DNA of 64,000 bases, taken from the IMG/VR virus record IMGVR_UViG_3300020045_009368, positions 1 to 64,000 of that record, one strand, 5' to 3'. Numbering within the stretch: the first letter of the stretch is position 1; each line of letters opens with the position of its first letter. The DNA is from a virus. The position numbers and the translations under genes were made by a program. This document shows, in pieces, positions 1-62,868 of the stretch. The notes under the pieces are model-generated. The model saw nothing but the letters and a program-made list of their open reading frames with translations. It did no database searches and was not told the DNA's origin.

Positions 1-2430
1 ATGAACTTTTAAGAAATGTATTGAATTACCTTTACTATCTAAACGTTTTTCTTCATAACCAATATCATCAGGTTTAATTGTTGTAAAATCAGTTAATTTA
101 TCTTTAATAGTTCCTTTTAAATTACCTTCAATAATTCTTTCTACATTAGATTTAGTTACAGCAGGTAAATCATAATAAATAGCACCTTTAAATTGACTAA
201 TTAATGATTGTAAACCATTAGTTTGTTTATCTGTATTTTTTGTAATTTCAATAAAATGATTAAGAACTTCTTTTTCAGTTTTACTTAATTTAGATAAATC
301 ATTTTTCCATTTAGCAATAGGTAAAGTAATACCATTTTTAACAATAGTATTATCTTTTTTAAAGTTATTAAAAGCTTCTTTAGCTTTTACATATTCTTTA
401 TTTTTAAAATCTTTACTTTCTTTAATTTTATTAAATGCTTCATATTTAGCATTTTGTAATTTTAAATATTCTTCTTTAAATTTAATAGAATATTCTCCTT
501 TTAAAACAGCATGACCAGTTGAATCAATATCTAATATATTTTCATATAATTTAGTTGGAGTACCTGTACCTTTTTCTTTAATTAATGCTTGAAATAATTT
601 ATCATCTTGAAAATCTCCTTCTCTAGTTAATTCAATAGTTTTTTCTCTAGCTTGAGTATAAAGATTAGCAGTTATACTAACAAGTCTTGAATTGTTATTA
701 ATCATATCTAAAAAATTAACTGCTGCTGAAGATATATCAGTACCAATTCCTTCCATTAAATTATTAATTTCTTTATCTAAATCTTGTTGTATTTCATTAA
801 CAAAAGGACCATTCATTTGCTTAGCAATCCATTGTTCTTGACTAATATTAGTTAAATTTCTTTGTTTAAATTCAATTGCTAACTTTTTTCTCCATTTATC
901 TTCAACTTGAGGTAAATAATTTAAAGTATTTAATTGTGTTTTAAGAATTTCTTTTAATTTATTATCAAATCTATTTTCTAATATATAATGTTCACCTTTA
1001 GCTTTTTTAATAGTTTCTACTATATCATTAACTAATTCTTCACCAACTTCTTCAATTTTATCTTTATTTAAAGAAGTAATTAAAGTAGATACATCATCAA
1101 TTAAATCATAAGAAGATAAATAAGATTTATATAAATCAACTAATTCAAGTCCGTTTTTATCTGTCAAATCTTCACGACTTAATCTTTCATCTAATTGTTT
1201 AATTGTAGATAACATTGAGTTAGTATAAACAGCAACACCTTTCCATTGATTTAAAACATCAACATTATTAATTTCTGTAATTAAATCTTGAATATGTTTT
1301 TCAAATTTAGTACCTTTAGCTTCATTTTGTTTTTTATATGTTTTACTACGAGCTAACATTTGATCAAGATTATCTTTAGCTTTATTTAAAGTTCTATTTA
1401 ATCTATCTTCAATACTTTCAATTTTAGTTTTTTTAAAATCTTCAATTTTTTGCTCAAATATTAATTGTTTTTGATTTAACATTCCTGTATAATCACGTCT
1501 ATCTTGTTCTATAAAATCAACAACTTGTTCTATTAATAAATCAGCCTCTTTAGATTTAGATAATCCAAATAAACGTCTTATAGCCTCTATAAACTGTTTA
1601 AAAAATGAAGTTTCATTTACTCTATCTAATTCTTTTAATTCATTTCTAAATTCAGAATTAGAATATATTTCAGCTACAAATTCTAATTCATCTTTAAAAC
1701 CATAACTTTCATTTTCTTTTGAAAAATTACCAGTTTGTCTAAGACTTTTATCAATTTGTTTAGAATCATACCATAAATACCATCTATCTATCAAACTTTT
1801 AAATTCTTTTTCTTCAAATGTTTGAGGATTAAGTAAAGCCTGTAAAGACTGACCATGTGCAATTTCATGAATAAAACCTTTAACAACATAATCTGTAGGA
1901 TAATTATTTATAATATCTCTACTCATTTCAATTATATTACTATTAACTCTAATATGCATTAATGCATTTTCACTAAATACTTCTTTACCTACTAATCTAA
2001 CTTGAGTACCTGTTCTACCTACTAATCGTCTAGCTTTTTGTAATAATTCAATTCCTTTAGGAGATAAATTTTTATAATTATTTAAAATATTTTCTAAAAC
2101 TTCATCAACAGTAAATTTACCTTGTTTATTATTAAATAATATTTTATTATTTTCATTAGAGTATTTTAATTCATTAGATACTTCCTGTTCAAAAACTATA
2201 TCAGTATTTTCATTCCAATCTAATTCATTTTTTTTAGACCCTTTAAGTGATTCTAATAAATTAGATTCTACTACTTCAGATTGTGTAACATCTTCTAATT
2301 TAGGATAAGAATCTAAACCATTTTTATCCTGAAAGATAGAAATTCTAGCCTTCAGGATTAATGGATTTAATTTTGATTGTTCTAATAACTCAATATATTC
2401 TTTTGAGCTTGTATTTATGCAATTTGCCAT
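1..2430 (-). CDS. Large ejected virion protein (phi14:2 gp67-like) with zincin HExxH motif; 3' end runs off the window
   Basis: Not in the ORF track because it is truncated. ATG at 2430 abuts the stop of the RNAP gene and reads MANCINTSSKEY...; GFIHEIAHG at ~1855-1869 is followed by EFVAE. Position next to the vRNAP is typical of crAss-like phages. Confidence 0.75.
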   Translation of the reverse strand, partial: MANCINTSSKEYIELLEQSKLNPLILKARISIFQDKNGLDSYPKLEDVTQSEVVESNLLESLKGSKKNELDWNENTDIVFEQEVSNELKYSNENNKILFNNKQGKFTVDEVLENILNNYKNLSPKGIELLQKARRLVGRTGTQVRLVGKEVFSENALMHIRVNSNIIEMSRDIINNYPTDYVVKGFIHEIAHGQSLQALLNPQTFEEKEFKSLIDRWYLWYDSKQIDKSLRQTGNFSKENESYGFKDELEFVAEIYSNSEFRNELKELDRVNETSFFKQFIEAIRRLFGLSKSKEADLLIEQVVDFIEQDRRDYTGMLNQKQLIFEQKIEDFKKTKIESIEDRLNRTLNKAKDNLDQMLARSKTYKKQNEAKGTKFEKHIQDLITEINNVDVLNQWKGVAVYTNSMLSTIKQLDERLSREDLTDKNGLELVDLYKSYLSSYDLIDDVSTLITSLNKDKIEEVGEELVNDIVETIKKAKGEHYILENRFDNKLKEILKTQLNTLNYLPQVEDKWRKKLAIEFKQRNLTNISQEQWIAKQMNGPFVNEIQQDLDKEINNLMEGIGTDISSAAVNFLDMINNNSRLVSITANLYTQAREKTIELTREGDFQDDKLFQALIKEKGTGTPTKLYENILDIDSTGHAVLKGEYSIKFKEEYLKLQNAKYEAFNKIKESKDFKNKEYVKAKEAFNNFKKDNTIVKNGITLPIAKWKNDLSKLSKTEKEVLNHFIEITKNTDKQTNGLQSLISQFKGAIYYDLPAVTKSNVERIIEGNLKGTIKDKLTDFTTIKPDDIGYEEKRLDSKGNSIHFLKVH

Positions 2431-33777: not shown

Positions 33778-33864
33778 AAAGGGACGTACATCACGCCCCG
33801 ATCACATTATTACTTTTTATTATTTTAAAGTGCAGGTGCTAAGGCTAATGCTTAGTTGGGCACT
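33778..33864 (-). terminator. Two GC-rich hairpins after the MCP stop (stabiliser/partial terminator)
   Basis: AGTGC...GCACT hairpin and GGGGCGTGATGTACGTCCCTTT hairpin on the minus strand. Confidence 0.5.
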
Positions 33865-37051: not shown

Positions 37052-37129
37052 CAAATATAATATAAAACTAAAAAAATTCCAAATATTAATTAATATATTT
37101 TCAATATTTGGAAGATTTTTAATAGCTTT
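37052..37129 (-). promoter_or_regulatory. Sigma70-type promoter with upstream AAAGCTATTA motif (head operon)
   Basis: TTTGG...TATATTTG; upstream motif at 37120-37129. Confidence 0.75.
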
Positions 37130-40206: not shown

Positions 40207-40240
40207 TTATATAAGTTTATTAAATTTTCTATTAACTTTA

Positions 40241-40317
40241 CAATATACGAAATTTTTATTCATTTTCAAAGTAATTATAAAATTATTTTATATGATTGGT
40301 TGATTTCTAATAGCTTT
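40241..40317 (-). promoter_or_regulatory. Variant sigma70-type promoter with upstream AAAGCTATTA motif (portal operon)
   Basis: TTTG...TATATTG; upstream motif at 40308-40317 lies inside the TerL 3' end. Confidence 0.55.
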
Positions 40318-42555
40318 CTTTTGATTATAGTTTTTATTAAAATATACATCATTACTTAAACTTTCAATTTGTTTGCCATCATTCTCAATAGCAGCTTTAC
40401 TTATTTTATATTTATCTTCTCTAAGTATAAATAACATACCTGCCGCAGATATTCTATCAAAGTTACCATCGCTATTCCATTTCATTGCTTCTTCTATATG
40501 TGCAAGTCCTCTCATAGTATGTAAATACATCATTCCTTCTTCATTACCTAATACTGGAGTATTCATCCAATCAGCATGAAGTTTTCTACCCCATTTATTA
40601 ACTTCAGCATTTGCTAATGTACCTTTAGATAAATTACCATAACCAGTACCTTTAGCTAATTGCATATCTTTAAGAATTTGAGGTGTATCACATAGTCTAT
40701 GTAATTGATTCTTTTTATCAAAATAACTAAATAGACCTTTTAAGTTTTTCTCATAGTTTGCAATACCATTATAAAATTCAATTGTGCGTAAAGCTATTTC
40801 ATAAGCTTCTTCAGCTAACTTAGGTCTACCTGTGTATTCACAAACTATTCTATCTGTAAAAGTATCCATTCCAATTATACTAAATAAAGATGTACCTGCA
40901 TCAGCATCAATAGGGTCAATACCAAATATATATCTACCAAAAGCAATTTCACCATTAGCATTTTCTTTAGGCATCTCAAATATTTCTAAACAACCTTCTC
41001 TATTAGCATTATCTTTATCATAACTTCTAAGAGGAAATTTATCTGTAGTAGGTTTCCATTTAAGTTTGCCATTTTCACCTCTAATTAAATTACCTACATA
41101 ATGTTCAGCTAAGAAAGAATCTTTTTTAACCATAATAGATTCAAGATGTTCTTTTAAATCAGATACAGGAAACACTGTTCCTTCAGTACGCATAATTGCT
41201 TCTTGAGGTGTAATAGGTTCTTCTGCTTTCTTTTGTGTGATTGCATTTGGATCTGTAGAACTATATTTTACAATATGTCTATCAGATAATATTTCAACTA
41301 ATGCTTTAATTATGTCAGGTTCACCAACAGTTTCATCATAACACATATTACGATTCATATACGCACCCCAAAAGAAACCACACATATTATCCCCAGTTGC
41401 ATTTTTATCAAATACATTTGGTATTCCATATATATTATAACCACCAGGACTATAAAATAACTTTTCAGATCCTTCAAAACTACCACCTTCAACTCCACCT
41501 GTACCCATTGCAATCATGAATCCAAATGTCATATTACCATCTTCTACTGCTTTTCTATTAACGTTCCAAGCTTTTTCAAGATTTGGAAATAAACCATCTT
41601 CTTCATAATGAATTAACGGTCCTCTAATACCCCTAGCTTTATCAGGATTATCTTTTAATGATATGCCATGTACAGAAGATAATAATCCTTTACGTGAACC
41701 ATATTCATCTTTAAATCCTAATTGTATTTCTAAAGTACTTCCCGCTCTATCTACAGTTCTCATTCTAGGTAATGGTGTATGTTCTGCAATCCAATCAAGA
41801 TTATCTACAACTTTACCCCAAATACCTTTATCTCCAGATAAAAAACCTTTTTCAGAAGCTAGATGAAAGTTTGGATTCCCAGATCCAGGAAACACATACA
41901 TATTTCTAGGACTCCAAGATGCCGCTTTAAAAGATGCACCAATACCACGAGTCTTTAACATTTTACCATGTTTACCTCTACGTTTAGCTTGTTCTACATA
42001 GTGGTGAAATAAATAATCACCTAACCATGGTTTACCAAACTCTTGTAATCTTTCTCCTTGTGATTTACTTCCTTCAGATTGAGTTCCTGCTTTTTCAACA
42101 ATCCAAATAGGACTATAGTTCCAATAGTAATATAACTCTCCAGGAATCCATTCACCATCACTAGGTCTTACTAATCCATGTTTCCATCTACGCTGTTCTT
42201 CTTTCCAGAATTCAGCATATAAAGATTTAGGATTTGGATTTGGTGTTATATTAGTATATTTACCATTCTTTTTAAAAAATAAAGCTCTTTCTCTAAAGAA
42301 ATCCATATCTTCCAATATGTGAGGATTTGTTAAATCTACTTCAATTCTACCATCACCATAATCAGATGAAAGAGGTCTGTCTTTAGCATAACCTCTTATA
42401 TTTTCTAGAGCAATTAATCTTTTAATAAATTCAACTGAAGATAAAGTATCTAATAATTCTAACCAAACTTCACGAGGTAAACTATTTTTAAGTTCCTCAG
42501 TAAGTTGAGTTTGATAAGAATTCATTTTATATATTATTTCTAATTCATTTTCCAT
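40288..42555 (-). CDS. terL: Terminase large subunit
   Basis: Walker A-like KTRGIGASF, Walker B-like HYEEDG, GTGG coupling motif, nuclease GIDPID and NFDRISA. Confidence 0.9.
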   Translation of the reverse strand: MENELEIIYKMNSYQTQLTEELKNSLPREVWLELLDTLSSVEFIKRLIALENIRGYAKDRPLSSDYGDGRIEVDLTNPHILEDMDFFRERALFFKKNGKYTNITPNPNPKSLYAEFWKEEQRRWKHGLVRPSDGEWIPGELYYYWNYSPIWIVEKAGTQSEGSKSQGERLQEFGKPWLGDYLFHHYVEQAKRRGKHGKMLKTRGIGASFKAASWSPRNMYVFPGSGNPNFHLASEKGFLSGDKGIWGKVVDNLDWIAEHTPLPRMRTVDRAGSTLEIQLGFKDEYGSRKGLLSSVHGISLKDNPDKARGIRGPLIHYEEDGLFPNLEKAWNVNRKAVEDGNMTFGFMIAMGTGGVEGGSFEGSEKLFYSPGGYNIYGIPNVFDKNATGDNMCGFFWGAYMNRNMCYDETVGEPDIIKALVEILSDRHIVKYSSTDPNAITQKKAEEPITPQEAIMRTEGTVFPVSDLKEHLESIMVKKDSFLAEHYVGNLIRGENGKLKWKPTTDKFPLRSYDKDNANREGCLEIFEMPKENANGEIAFGRYIFGIDPIDADAGTSLFSIIGMDTFTDRIVCEYTGRPKLAEEAYEIALRTIEFYNGIANYEKNLKGLFSYFDKKNQLHRLCDTPQILKDMQLAKGTGYGNLSKGTLANAEVNKWGRKLHADWMNTPVLGNEEGMMYLHTMRGLAHIEEAMKWNSDGNFDRISAAGMLFILREDKYKISKAAIENDGKQIESLSNDVYFNKNYNQKKAIRNQPII

Positions 42556-44036
42556 TCGTTTTCTTGTAATACAATAGCTTTAGTGCTAAGTATGACTTTT
42601 GCTGTAGCAACAGCATTTAATAATGCACATCTTGTAACTTTAAGTGGATCTATAATATTTTTTTCAAAATAAGTTATTCTTGGAATATCATGCCCTTTAA
42701 TATATTTTTCATCTAAATCACATCCATTTTTAGAAATTGTCCAATTTGGTTCACATAATGAATCACATATTGATAATATAATTGGGTCTGTTGTTATAGA
42801 TGAATATCTGGCTTCTAATAAAGCATAACCTGCACCTTCTACAATACCTTCTTCTAATGCGCAAGCAACTGCTTTAATAGAATCATCATATCTATCAAAA
42901 CGTTCTAACATTTCATTTTTAGTTTTACCACCTACTTTAATAATAGATACTTTACCTTCTAATTTTTCAATTCTTTGAGTAAGTAACTCTTTATCGTAGT
43001 CAGTTAAATCAGAACTAGTTAATTGTTCTTTTAAAGATAATATTTTAGAATCTATATTTATATCTTCGTGTTTAACTAATACACTATTATTTTTACTAAT
43101 TTTACATGACTTCAATCTACCAAGTATTCCATTAGTATATTGTTTAGTAAAATCTTTAATTACAGTTGCTCCTGTAAAATTAGCTAAATCATCTAACAAA
43201 TCTTTTCTATGTTTAGAATAACCTGGAGTTTTAATAACTACAATCTTAACACCTGTACTTAAAACAAATGATTCTAATTTACGTAATACTTGTTCATGAA
43301 TATCTTCACACATAATTACTAAAGAACAATCTTGTACTTCAGCTTGTTGTAATTGTAATTTAAATGTTTCTAATTTTTCTAATTTACCATCAAGTAATAA
43401 AATAAATACATTTTCATTATCAAACTCTACAGTACCTTTAGATTCATTAGTAACAAAATGTTTACTAAAATAAGATACTGGTAATGACATACCATCTACT
43501 AATTCTAATACATCTTCTATATTATCACTTTCTTCTATTTTAACTATGGAAGTATGGTTGTAAGCCTGTTGAATAAGTTCACCAATTTGTATATCATTAT
43601 TAGCAGATATACTAGCAACATATTTAATATCTTCATGTTTTAATTCTCTTGAATTAAGTTTTAATTGTTCAATAACTTTAGGAATGATTTCATCAAAAGC
43701 TTTGTTAATATCTTTAGATTCAAAATCTTTTAAGTTGTTTACAAATGCAGTAGTAAGTACTGTTGCAGTAGTTGTACCATCACCAGCTTCTTCTACAGTT
43801 TTATTTGCAGCTTCTCTTAATAGTTCTACACCAATATTTTCAATTGGATCTTTTAATTTAATACTATTAATAACACTGACACCATCTTTAGTAACTACAT
43901 ATTTATTTAATCTAATATTTGGTATAATAACAGTAGCACCATTTGGACCCATAGTAGAAGCAACTGCATCATTAGCTTTATTCATTCCAATGATTAATTT
44001 ATCTTTTCCTTCTTTATTGTAATATATTTCTTCCAT
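42540..44036 (-). CDS. groEL: Phage-encoded GroEL-like chaperonin
   Basis: TMGPNG, TKDGVSV, AGDGTTTATV, EEGIVEGAG and IIDPLKVTR motifs; no GGM tail. Confidence 0.92.
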   Translation of the reverse strand: MEEIYYNKEGKDKLIIGMNKANDAVASTMGPNGATVIIPNIRLNKYVVTKDGVSVINSIKLKDPIENIGVELLREAANKTVEEAGDGTTTATVLTTAFVNNLKDFESKDINKAFDEIIPKVIEQLKLNSRELKHEDIKYVASISANNDIQIGELIQQAYNHTSIVKIEESDNIEDVLELVDGMSLPVSYFSKHFVTNESKGTVEFDNENVFILLLDGKLEKLETFKLQLQQAEVQDCSLVIMCEDIHEQVLRKLESFVLSTGVKIVVIKTPGYSKHRKDLLDDLANFTGATVIKDFTKQYTNGILGRLKSCKISKNNSVLVKHEDINIDSKILSLKEQLTSSDLTDYDKELLTQRIEKLEGKVSIIKVGGKTKNEMLERFDRYDDSIKAVACALEEGIVEGAGYALLEARYSSITTDPIILSICDSLCEPNWTISKNGCDLDEKYIKGHDIPRITYFEKNIIDPLKVTRCALLNAVATAKVILSTKAIVLQENEWKMN

Positions 44037-47101: not shown

Positions 47102-47764
47102 TTATTCATTTTCTAAATAGTTTATAATATCTGTTAATATAGGATTTCTATGATTAGCTGTTAAAGTTTTAAATCCTACTAAATTACTTTGCTCTAATTT
47201 TATTATAGAATGAATACAACTGTTTTTACCAATTGCTTTATCTATCTGTTGTAATGATCCGCAAAAGATCATTTTACTATCTTTACCTAATCTAGTTAAT
47301 ATAGTTCTAAAATCAATATAATCCATATCTTGAAATTCATCTACAATAACAACTGATTTCATAAAAGACACACCTTTTGCAACTTCAATTGGCATAATCT
47401 TAATTAAACCTTCTTTAAGCATTTTATCAGTTTGTTCTTTACCTTGACATACTTCTAAGTTTTGAACTAAAGGAAATGTATAAGGTGCCATCTTCTCTTC
47501 TAATGTTCCAGGTAAAGCTGCTAAACTATTTTTTAGCATTGGTCTAGTAATCCAAATATTATCTACTTGTTTCTTTCTAAATGCTTTTAAAGCAGTATGA
47601 ACTGCAGCAAGTGATTTACCTGAACCAAAATCTCCTAATAGAAAATTTACATCATATTGATAAAACAATTCTACAAATTCTTTTTGTTCTTCATTTAAAT
47701 CAACTAATAACTTAGGTTCTGTTTTAAGTTGTCTTTTTTCTGTATTAGGAATCTTTTCTCTCAT
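47102..47764 (-). CDS. phoH: PhoH-family ATPase
   Basis: GDFGSGKS, LPGTLEEKMAP, VIVDEFQD, LTRLG and HRNP motifs. Confidence 0.88.
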   Translation of the reverse strand: MREKIPNTEKRQLKTEPKLLVDLNEEQKEFVELFYQYDVNFLLGDFGSGKSLAAVHTALKAFRKKQVDNIWITRPMLKNSLAALPGTLEEKMAPYTFPLVQNLEVCQGKEQTDKMLKEGLIKIMPIEVAKGVSFMKSVVIVDEFQDMDYIDFRTILTRLGKDSKMIFCGSLQQIDKAIGKNSCIHSIIKLEQSNLVGFKTLTANHRNPILTDIINYLENE

Positions 47765-50194: not shown

Positions 50195-50366
50195 CTGGTT
50201 TATTATTTTTACTGTTAAATTCTTTTTCTGCTAATTTTTTATATTCTTCTAAAGTGTATATTTTATTATTAGACATATCTAATATTTCTATTTTATAAGA
50301 TTCACTTCCAGGTTTACTTGGTTGATTCCATTCATCATTAAAGTATTGTGTATTATCTTCTTTCAT
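50172..50366 (-). CDS. Hypothetical protein
   Basis: 64 aa ORF. Confidence 0.45.
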   Translation of the reverse strand: MKEDNTQYFNDEWNQPSKPGSESYKIEILDMSNNKIYTLEEYKKLAEKEFNSKNNKPDGRRYKK

Positions 50367-50902
50367 TAGTTTAATTTTAAACGTTCAAAATCTTTTCTAT
50401 ATAAGATAACATCATCACCTTCAATTATTCTTTTAATCTCTTTAGAATTAAGTCCTAATTCTTTATATTTAGCAACATATTTATTATTTTCTTCTTGTAG
50501 TTGTTCATATAATATTTGTGTATTAAATGTAGTTTTTCTAAACTGTCCTTCAACTGCTCTATCACCTAAATGAAATAATATTGCTTCTAAACATTCATCT
50601 AAAAATAAATTACCTTTATAATCAGTTAAAAGAAATGTTCCAGCAGAAGCAATCATATCAGTTAAATATACATTAATATCAGGATGATTATTTAGAAATT
50701 TAATTAGTATTTTCATTGCTGTCATTTCACCACCATGTGTAGAAAAATATAAATCTATTTGAGGACATCCGTGTAAATGATCAATTAAAGTTTGAACTGA
50801 TTCTTTACTAATATCACTTTCAAAATAATGAATATATCTTTGTGTTGGTACTGATGATTCTAATTCATCTAATAACGCATTTATTAAATCTTCTTTTTGC
50901 AT
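50366..50902 (-). CDS. ClpP/crotonase-like serine protease
   Basis: LYFSTHGGE (cf. INSPGG), IASAG catalytic Ser and ILFH catalytic His. Confidence 0.7.
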   Translation of the reverse strand: MQKEDLINALLDELESSVPTQRYIHYFESDISKESVQTLIDHLHGCPQIDLYFSTHGGEMTAMKILIKFLNNHPDINVYLTDMIASAGTFLLTDYKGNLFLDECLEAILFHLGDRAVEGQFRKTTFNTQILYEQLQEENNKYVAKYKELGLNSKEIKRIIEGDDVILYRKDFERLKLN

Positions 50903-50930
50903 ATATTTATCTTATATTTTAATTATAGTA

Positions 50931-50961
50931 CAAAGATAATACTTTTTTTTGACATATGCAA
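50931..50961 (-). promoter_or_regulatory. Bacteroidota sigma70-type promoter
   Basis: TTGC...TATCTTTG upstream of the ClpP-like gene. Confidence 0.7.
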
Positions 50962-51011
50962 GTTTTTTAGCAATTATTTTTAAAAAATATGTAAAATAAA
51001 TTTTAAAGCAT

Positions 51012-51046
51012 AAAAAAACCCACTAAATCCTAAGACTTAATGGGTT
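51012..51046 (-). terminator. Intrinsic terminator of the putative ncRNA
   Basis: AACCCATTAAGTC-TTAG-GATTTAGTGGGTTTTTTT. Confidence 0.75.
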
Positions 51047-51300
51047 GTGTCGTATAATTCTCATATACGAGAATATTTTATATAAGTTTCCTATAACTAA
51101 TAAAGTTATAATTTAGTTATTTAACTAATAGATATAGCGAGGTTTCCACGATTTCTAACTGAAATGTGTTACCCTTGGCTAGCCAGTGTTACAGAAGTTG
51201 TCATACCTCGCAAAACCCATCCTCTTAAAACTATACGTTGGTGCCGTGTCCACCATTAATTAAGACAACTGTATCCTAAACTAGTTGCTATTTTATTTTA
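51012..51300 (-). ncRNA. Putative ~290-nt structured ncRNA
   Basis: Own promoter and terminator, locally GC-rich, several helices (GCGAGGT/ACCTCGC, TGGTG/CACCA), no ORF over 25 codons. Confidence 0.6.
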
Positions 51301-51306
51301 ATACTA

Positions 51307-51384
51307 CAAAGATACAACATTTATTTGTAAAATCCTAATTTTTTAGTAATTATTTTCAATTATTTGGAGTTTACTAATAGCTTT
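51307..51384 (-). promoter_or_regulatory. Sigma70-type promoter with upstream AAAGCTATTA motif driving the ncRNA
   Basis: TTAGG...TATCTTTG; upstream motif at 51375-51384. Confidence 0.7.
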
Positions 51385-51387
51385 TTG

Positions 51388-51579
51388 TTAATATTCTAAT
51401 CTCATATTAGATTCTTTATCATACACAACCATTGTTTTTTTAGTTCCATTAACAAATCCAAACATTAAATCTTTAAATTTTGGTAATATAAGTTCTTGTT
51501 CACATTCTTTTGCAATAAAAGATTTTGAAAAATATATATCTTTAATATATTTAACATATTTTAATTTTTCTTTATTCAT
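51388..51579 (-). CDS. Hypothetical protein
   Basis: 63 aa ORF with its own promoter. Confidence 0.5.
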   Translation of the reverse strand: MNKEKLKYVKYIKDIYFSKSFIAKECEQELILPKFKDLMFGFVNGTKKTMVVYDKESNMRLEY

Positions 51580-51594
51580 AATATTTAATTTTTA

Positions 51595-51626
51595 CAAATA
51601 TACAACAAATAATTGACATTTCCAAA
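51595..51626 (-). promoter_or_regulatory. Bacteroidota sigma70-type promoter
   Basis: TTTGG...TATATTTG. Confidence 0.7.
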
Positions 51627-51803
51627 TTTTTTTTAATTTTTTTTTAAAATTTTTATTTGTGAGTGAATATGCTAAAATTTTATTTTTTTTAGAAAAAATT
51701 ATTATTCTCAAATGTGCTAACTAACCTAAACTTCACCCCACTCTTTTCAAGTTTTGGTAATATACCCCTATACATTATCTTATTAATCCTTAAATGTCTT
51801 ATT

Positions 51804-52174
51804 ATGACTAAATTCAAAGCTGTTCAAAATGAACAAACTGGCAAAACTGATTACAACTTTCCTGCGGAATTAAAATCTGTAGGAACTAAAGAGTTTGAAA
51901 ACTCTAATGGTACAAAGTATGTACTTGGTACTGTTGACTTCACGTACCCTAATGGTACACCTGCAAAAGCTGTCACAACTCAAATCTTTGCTAAATCATT
52001 AGCTCACGGTATGAAAGTTGGAGATTCTTTGTTATCAACTCTGTCTCGTGATGATAACAACACTATGTGGATTAGAACTTCACACTTACTGCTGGTAACA
52101 CTATTGACATTGATGCCTTTGGTAGCTTGTTTGATGAAGTTGCTGTTGAAGAAGAAGTTGAAGCAAATGCTTAA
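51804..52174 (+). CDS. Putative SSB/OB-fold protein with acidic tail; one frameshift near 52088
   Basis: MTKFKAV...RTSHL, then the -1 frame reads TAGNTIDIDAFGSLFDEVAVEEEVEANA* and ends just before a terminator. Confidence 0.55.
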
Positions 52175-62809: not shown

Positions 62810-62868
62810 TGGGATATAGCTCAATTGGAAGAGCAGTGTTTTTCTAGGTTCAATTCCTAGTATCCCAA
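62810..62868 (+). ncRNA. tRNA-like RNA lacking the anticodon arm
   Basis: TGGGATA/TATCCCA acceptor stem, GCTC-AATTGGAA-GAGC D arm, 9-nt linker, CTAGG-TTCAATT-CCTAG T arm. Confidence 0.8.

Follow-up and report, generated by a model that had tools for sequence, protein, structure and literature searches.

Species 1 and 2 of phage T4 (rnaC and rnaD) are stable, structured RNAs encoded inside a tRNA cluster, and the pRNA of phi29 belongs to the packaging motor, for which every phi29-like phage, as far as is known, requires it. GOLLD (RF02032) and ROOL (RF03087) are orphan, intricately folded phage RNAs of 500-800 nt, often encoded near tRNA genes and patchily distributed. The put element of HK022 and the EAR element of Bacillus open a long operon, where they follow directly on the promoter and precede a terminator, and no phage protein is known to be needed for their action. 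The crAss-like phages rank with the most abundant of all known viruses, and to our knowledge almost nothing is known about their RNA biology. Abundant long non-coding RNAs have been reported from the g004-g005 and g005-g006 gaps of phage phi14:2, where they are transcribed early and rightward (bioRxiv 10.1101/2020.03.07.982082). A structured RNA of the kind described here was not found in the literature on crAss-like phages.

Here we analysed a stretch of 64,000 nucleotides (the window) that is part of a 99.8-kb virus record with crAss-type capsid, portal and large terminase genes. Its nearest relative in culture is phage phi14:2 of Cellulophaga (Crassvirales, Steigviridae), with 61% identity in the capsid protein (MCP). 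Like the T4 species, the RNA encoded on the minus strand at 51 kb is phage-encoded, 100-300 nt long, structured, apparently stable and not known to have a dedicated protein partner, and in a single relative it is linked to a tRNA gene. Unlike them, it contains two pseudoknots supported by covariation, and in most cases it opens the structural-gene arm as a unit with a separate promoter and terminator. There is no relation in sequence or structure. With the pRNA (RF00044) it shares a phage origin, a similar size and a loop complementarity that could in principle be intermolecular, but it does not match the pRNA model, is optional and does not follow the phylogeny of portal or TerL. GOLLD and ROOL are likewise orphan RNAs with a patchy distribution, but theirs is far wider and their models do not match the 171-nt core of the RNA. 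The put and EAR elements occupy a similar position behind a promoter, but they are smaller and built differently, and the RNA has no terminators to suppress for 17 kb and is followed by operons with promoters of their own. The phi14:2 RNAs are also non-coding RNAs of a crAss-like phage of Flavobacteriia, but they lie elsewhere in the genome and are early, and no homologue of our RNA was found in phi14:2 with covariance model R1 (filters off) or R2.

The transcription unit and its promoter class

The unit at 51010-51300 consists of a promoter, a conserved core of 171 nt, a variable 3' tail and an intrinsic terminator (Table 1). The original prediction had postulated a stand-alone structured RNA gene with a dedicated promoter and terminator, and both signals could indeed be located on the minus strand, next to a fold that is supported by covariation. 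The terminator is the sole terminator-like site in the interval 50300-52000, where 0.2 would be expected. Only two minus-strand sites were found between 33000 and 52000 by the consensus scan on which this count is based, namely the terminator of the RNA itself and a site at 33781-33799, which is located 3' of the capsid gene (ending at 33.8 kb) and past further promoters. The terminator of the RNA is thus the only one on the minus strand from 51 kb to 33.8 kb, and in this way shields the RNA unit from a long block devoid of such sites. The next gene (50366-50902) encodes a protein of 178 aa that matches phrog_32912 and, weakly, a ClpP-like protease, and it has its own TATCTTTG promoter just past the terminator of the RNA.

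Table 1. Features of the RNA gene in window coordinates
Feature	Position	Strand	Evidence or remark
Upstream promoter box: AAAGCTATTA at 51375-51384, then ..CCAA..ATTGAAAATAAT	51339-51384	-	Three promoters align
Core promoter: TTAGGA (-33 region)-N18-TATCTTTG (Bacteroidota -7 element)	51307-51338	-	Kept in 9/9 close relatives
Probable transcription start (~51299-51301) and A-rich leader (..AAAAUAAAAUA)	51293-51300	-	Spacing behind the -7 element
Conserved RNA core, 171 nt	51122-51292	-	RNA position p = window coordinate 51293 - p
P1 hairpin: GCAAC (51288-51284)/GUUGU (51269-51265)	51265-51288	-	99% paired, nearly invariant
PK1 5' strand, UAGUU (RNA positions 10-14)	51279-51283	-	Pairs with 51180-51184
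PK2 5' strand, ACA (RNA positions 21-23)	51270-51272	-	Pairs with 51191-51193
P2 (CUUAA/UUAAG), enclosing the P3 hairpin (UGGUG/CACCA, loop GACACGG)	51223-51264	-	
P4 (GGGU/AUCU) and P5 (GCGAGGU/ACCUCGC), closing a large internal loop	51130-51218	-	
PK2 3' strand, UGU (RNA positions 100-102)	51191-51193	-	Pairs with 51270-51272
PK1 3' strand, GGCUA (RNA positions 109-113)	51180-51184	-	Part of the TGGCTAGCCA 'palindrome'
Semi-conserved 3' module: AU-rich hairpin, then UAUAGGAAACUUAUAU	51080-51121	-	Helix 9 covariation
Window-specific insert with a small hairpin (UUCUCGUAUAUGAGAA), 33 nt	51047-51079	-	Missing from relatives in alignments
Intrinsic terminator, 13-bp stem and U7	51010-51046	-	Stem and U-tract at 51017-51046

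The upstream box and the A-rich leader motif are both retained in relatives. The window holds three exact copies of the 10-mer in the box, with a constant spacing between copy and -7 element, and the copies precede the RNA, the operon of the 356-aa protein and the capsid, and the portal operon, where the box lies inside the end of terL. The alignment of the RNA promoter with the promoters at 37052-37129 and 40240-40317 extends from the box over ..CCAA.. to ATTGAAAATAAT, and the earlier claim of an upstream motif in common with the capsid and portal promoters was thereby confirmed. Judged by its sequence, the RNA promoter belongs to the same class as those of the capsid and portal operons. Tripartite promoters of such a type in phi14:2 are active in the middle/late phase, are read by the host RNA polymerase, and are located in front of the portal and gp092 homologues as well as, in many cases, tRNA genes (bioRxiv 10.1101/2020.03.07.982082). 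The timing that we assign to the promoter class is taken from the genes that it precedes and from phi14:2, which is a phage without the RNA.

The elevated GC content that had been noted for the region was also recovered, with a value of 0.43 at 51150-51249 versus about 0.22 in the flanks. The predicted folding energy is lower than that of shuffled sequences on the minus strand (z-score -3.9) as well as on the opposite strand (-3.7), and since the two values are similar, folding energy alone does not pick the strand. The minus strand was chosen because of the promoter, the terminator and the invariant G-U pairs in helix P4, whose pairs are G-U or G-C and whose G-U pairs would become C-A on the opposite strand.

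The 25-codon ORF that had been pointed out before is present (51179-51256, minus strand), but it is not conserved and its ATG is lost in relatives. That the transcript is the mRNA of a small peptide, encoded by this ORF or by a 13-codon ORF (MGFARYDNF..), is scarcely credible. ORFs of 11-27 codons do occur in many members of the family, but none is common to all members, many members contain no ORF longer than 4 codons, and start codons are lost by changes from AUGG to AAAG or AUAG and from UAUGAC to UACGAC. Furthermore, the substitutions are compensatory in helices, not synonymous. With its own promoter and terminator and no conserved ORF, the unit is a stand-alone small RNA gene of the phage, with a predicted product of about 290 nt.

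Fold and covariation

Homologues were recovered by pattern scans and two covariance models (R1 and R2), and the core in the window scores 175.8 bits with model R2. Conservation extends over the 171 nt of the core, and the 3' tail and the terminator are variable. Three helices that had been read from the sequence, GCAACT/AGTTGT (P1), TGGTG/CACCA (P3) and GCGAGGT/ACCTCGC (P5), turned out to be real, the latter two with compensatory changes. In a model-guided alignment of 19 sequences, changes on both sides of a pair were seen in all six pairs of P2 (99% paired), in two of the five pairs of P3, in two of the three pairs of the P6 hairpin and in all eight pairs of the 3' hairpin (helix 9). For P5, which is 99.7% paired, the corresponding number is four of seven, and the region of P3 differs in size between subtypes. 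The 3' module motif that follows helix 9 is found once in the window.

The P1 loop of 14 nt bears both pseudoknot strands in addition to an invariant UAGG. PK1 was found by scanning a plain MAFFT alignment for complementary columns, in which it is 100% paired with both-sided changes in 3/5 pairs. The pseudoknots were then counted in 44 distinct sequences aligned by a model that holds only P1, P4 and P5, and thus no pseudoknot. PK1 is 99.1% paired in this set, again with both-sided changes in 3/5 pairs. For PK2, pairing reaches 100%, 3/3 pairs have changed on both sides, and at least five distinct compensating combinations occur. Controls in which the 3' partner was slid by 1-3 columns were 35-47% paired. 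Taken over all 24 tested pairs, both-sided changes were observed in 10, and 99.3% of the cells are paired, versus the 35-47% of the slid controls. In L382, which diverges most from the other members, PK1 has a further C-G variant. The covariation thus indicates a double pseudoknot, in which a segment within the P5/P6 internal loop is joined at either end to the P1 loop by base pairs, a pattern that is equally compatible with pairing within one molecule or between molecules.

The covariation check across crAss-like relatives that had been proposed for the locus hence lends support to P2, P3, P5, P6, PK1 and PK2, and the compensatory changes in several helices identify a structured RNA family that evolves under the constraint of a predicted fold. 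Other pairings that had been suggested did not survive the comparison. The GGCUA at 51184-51180 pairs with the P1 loop, and the TGGCTAGCCA 'palindrome' is therefore one strand of a pseudoknot and not a hairpin. The proposed long-range pairing CGTATAGTT/AATTATACG has one of its arms in the 33-nt insert that relatives do not have. Helices 92-94/100-102 and the GGC/GCC 'palindrome' (helices 6 and 7) from RNAalifold were rejected, being unsupported in divergent members and in conflict with PK2 and PK1, respectively. A 7-bp pairing made of invariant bases only, GGGUUUU/GAAACCY, is a possible alternative that would form in competition with P4 and P5.

The strictly invariant unpaired motifs comprise UAGG in the P1 loop, ACGGGUUU, GUAUGACRACUUC, AGCCAAG and GGAAA. 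Of these, GUAUGACRACUUC and AGCCAAG are located in the large internal loop closed by P4 and P5, which has GGAAA on its 3' side and also contains the P6 hairpin (51147-51168). Together with the double pseudoknot, such a large number of invariant unpaired nucleotides is a signature commonly seen in RNAs with a specific binding partner or a catalytic activity. A reading of the P5-proximal loop as a K-turn or sarcin-ricin motif, made by eye, was discarded as the sequence is off the consensus of these motifs.

Distribution among relatives and the occupants of the locus

The searches recovered about 60 homologues (44 distinct cores from 52 hits) on environmental contigs of crAss-like phages, with about 40 contigs from IMG/VR, 27 from metagenomes and one from GTDB. 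The GTDB contig (L261; DASVUV010000089.1, 104,255 bp) is the single match among 185,579 GTDB species genomes. It comes from the bin of an Allosphingosinicella MAG and most likely represents a misplaced genome of a crAss-like phage. Weak covariance-model matches in L259 and L260 and at a second site in L254 were judged to be non-homologous. The 14-mer CGTGGAAACCTCGC was tried as a probe for the family and matched mostly by chance, and of the matches to GATGGGTTTTGCGAGG, 5/14 were chance matches in coding DNA. A search for related loci via the ClpP-like protein found no relatives, and blastn against the GenBank phages gave two short chance matches only.

The Rfam/Infernal search suggested in the original prediction was also performed. 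In Rfam 15 (4227 models, including pRNA, ROOL, GOLLD, 6S, tmRNA, RNase P, riboswitches and self-cleaving ribozymes) no family matched the RNA at the gathering score, and when E was relaxed to 10 the region 50850-51450 gave chance-level matches to miRNA, snoRNA and rliH models only. A tRNA at 62810-62868 was the only match in the whole window at the gathering threshold. The RNA thus represents an uncatalogued family which, as far as searched, appears restricted to one clade of environmental crAss-like phages. Short contigs of relatives that cover the core are present in metatranscriptomes from two mosquito runs and one marine run, libraries which can also contain DNA, and another run yielded none. 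One of them (X20) covers 51123-51291 and another (X17) covers 51135-51339, and since strand, ends and level cannot be read from such contigs, they are not taken here as a sign of expression.

Among 16 near-complete related genomes, the RNA is present in 10 and absent from 6, and carriers and non-carriers are interleaved when ordered by capsid, portal or TerL identity. Even the closest relative of the window phage (95% identity in MCP, 83% in portal) does not carry the RNA. On the portal tree, the pattern of presence needs at least five gains or losses, compared with a mean of 5.1 for shuffled labels, and three well-supported sister groupings are mixed for presence of the RNA. The non-carriers have other non-coding elements in this position, likewise downstream of a promoter of that type. 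These comparisons identify the locus as a putative cassette slot, in which the RNA is optional and can be swapped.

The replacements are of several kinds. A class B element of about 300 nt, unrelated to the RNA, is found in L289 (~195-460, plus strand) and L290 (~475-740, plus strand). Just downstream of class B lies a gene for a protein of 180-191 aa (for example G001:72270-72812 and G007:81759-82334), which is present in 3 non-carrier genomes and in no carrier. A GC-rich class C element of about 100 nt is found behind the same promoter type in L292 (~810-910, plus strand) and L293 (~700-800, reverse strand). In G002 (C1:6740-7330, minus strand), an insert of about 590 nt replaces the RNA and contains about 270 nt of GC-richer non-coding sequence followed by a small ORF, and the flanks with the promoter and the terminator are conserved with the near-identical G005. 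An Rfam search with class B, class C and the G002 insert gave no match. A hairpin UAUAGG..CUUAUAU(CUA) precedes the terminator in the RNA family (51080-51095 in the window, minus strand) and is also present in class B (L289, ~425-445), and may thus serve the cassettes as a common signal for processing or for their boundary.

No ORF family tracks the RNA in a search for partner proteins by phyletic profile, in which the best uncorrected p value among about 2,900 ORFs was 0.008. Likewise, complements of the invariant motifs are absent from the window at up to two mismatches, and in the whole phage genome only AT-rich 10-mers at chance level were found. The RNA does not, by these searches, resemble a base-pairing sRNA directed against the genes of the phage itself.

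Candidate functions

We considered the possibility that the RNA acts in cis on the genes behind it. The original prediction offered an attenuator or riboswitch that controls read-through into the ClpP operon, and the order of promoter, structured RNA, terminator and gene would suit such a role, as would the ability of the 5' arm of the terminator in the window to pair with UAAGA..AUGGGUU in the core (the pairing proposed as TAAGA..ATGGGTT/AACCCAT..TCTTA). However, at least six different families supply the adjacent downstream gene across 16 loci, and this gene is ClpP-like in only 5/16, with no conserved downstream gene or pathway, and the next gene is driven by a separate promoter. A terminator is found 3' of the core in 37/39 distinct relatives, at a distance of 58-210 nt, but the stems are of at least four unrelated sequence types and the competing pairing is possible only with stems of the ACCCA type, so that most cannot form it. 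In one relative (L219), a tRNA-Thr(UGU) gene at 1417-1490 (plus strand) lies under the same promoter as the RNA, with 10 nt between its end and the RNA, an arrangement that suggests processing like that of a stable RNA in this phage. The variable downstream gene, the retained terminators and this tRNA gene together fit a discrete stable RNA better than a leader, and the attenuator or riboswitch, which we regard as very unlikely, is largely refuted by the comparison. A second possibility in cis is processive antitermination of the put or EAR kind, whereby the nascent RNA would bind the host RNA polymerase and permit read-through into the leftward block. The RNA is located directly behind a promoter that heads a co-directional middle/late block, ahead of a terminator. 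Such a mechanism needs no dedicated phage protein, in agreement with the phyletic profiles, and alternative RNA cassettes occupy the same place in related phages, much as lambdoid phages alternate N/nut and put. We nevertheless consider it unlikely, since the only minus-strand terminator for 17 kb downstream is that of the RNA itself, separate promoters precede the next gene as well as the portal and capsid operons, the terminators are strong and almost universally retained, and the RNA is optional among close relatives.

Other hypotheses attribute the function to the folded molecule as such. The RNA could be a self-assembling structural RNA in which PK1 and/or PK2 form between molecules to build a ring or cage for packaging or for the enclosure of cargo late in infection. 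The covariation of PK1 and PK2 fits intermolecular pairing equally well, the promoter class is the one of the portal and capsid operons, and the PK1 strands are partly palindromic in the subtype of the window. We give this hypothesis little credence, because the palindromic character is lost in other subtypes, in which the complementarity between two different strands is kept, the pRNA, ROOL and GOLLD models are unmatched, and the RNA is missing from 6 of the 16 genomes, among them that of the window phage's sister, with a scattered distribution over the portal tree. The dispensability of the RNA argues against a part of the packaging motor, and with this distribution and no match to the pRNA model, the phi29 pRNA-like role proposed at the outset is not supported. 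A slim chance is left for a ribozyme or a ligand-sensing RNA that acts on itself, for example in self-processing from a longer transcript. Double pseudoknots are typical of the glmS, HDV-like and twister ribozymes, the invariant unpaired positions (among them GUAUGACRACUUC, AGCCAAG, GGAAA and ACGGGUUU) are framed by covarying helices, and a tRNA or additional 3' modules sometimes accompany the RNA in tandem. Yet the known ribozyme and riboswitch models are unmatched at E up to 10, no conserved context of a cleavage site was identified, and with a promoter and a terminator of its own the RNA does not evidently need self-processing.

We favor the hypothesis, with a probability of roughly 55%, that the RNA is an optional, stable and trans-acting folded molecule that is made with the middle/late genes and has a host factor or a universally conserved factor as its most likely partner. 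The host RNA polymerase would transcribe the RNA from the tripartite middle/late promoter, and the product would act in trans as a stable folded molecule instead of as the leader of the next gene. It would be an optional cassette and not a core part of the virion or the packaging machine. Late in infection, it may bind, titrate or mimic a host protein, an enzyme or a defence sensor, to name some examples of partners. No phage protein travels with the RNA and there is no tie to the packaging proteins, which by elimination leaves a component of the host, or one that is conserved universally, as the most likely partner. A core phage protein that is present in all relatives could also serve as the partner. 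A role as a decoy, a mimic or a titrating RNA is our most economical guess.

A more far-reaching idea, which we put forward tentatively and hold to be possible at most, is that the RNA belongs to a new class with an activity of its own, possibly a ribozyme, or a high-affinity decoy or mimic that would neutralise a host factor, such as one in RNA-sensing defence, and that the elements at the locus are interchangeable 'cartridges' behind one late promoter. If this were true, the locus would be the RNA counterpart of the protein anti-defence islands. With about 60 sequences, which all come from one clade, the family is a narrow one, and we regard it as a solid new RNA family, not as a breakthrough. 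For experimental research, it offers a 171-nt construct with a testable fold, natural 'swap' controls and the question of optional late RNAs in a lytic phage.

A few further observations concern the surroundings of the RNA and the rest of the window. Seven relatives (L002, L003, L224, L270, L273, L267 and L242) have 145-210 nt of extra sequence between the core and the terminator, which in L224 includes a T-arm-like GAGTTCGACTCTC, and the extra sequence may represent additional RNA modules of the same transcription unit. ARAGORN called no tRNA anywhere in the window. The tRNA-like gene at 62810-62868 (plus strand) is 59 nt long, scores 46.5 bits with the Rfam tRNA model and has acceptor, D and T arms, with only 4 nt in the place of the anticodon arm. 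A GroEL-like chaperonin (42540-44036, minus strand) and a PhoH-like ATPase (47102-47764, minus strand) are also encoded in the window, and the chaperonin gene is located directly upstream of terL and overlaps its start.
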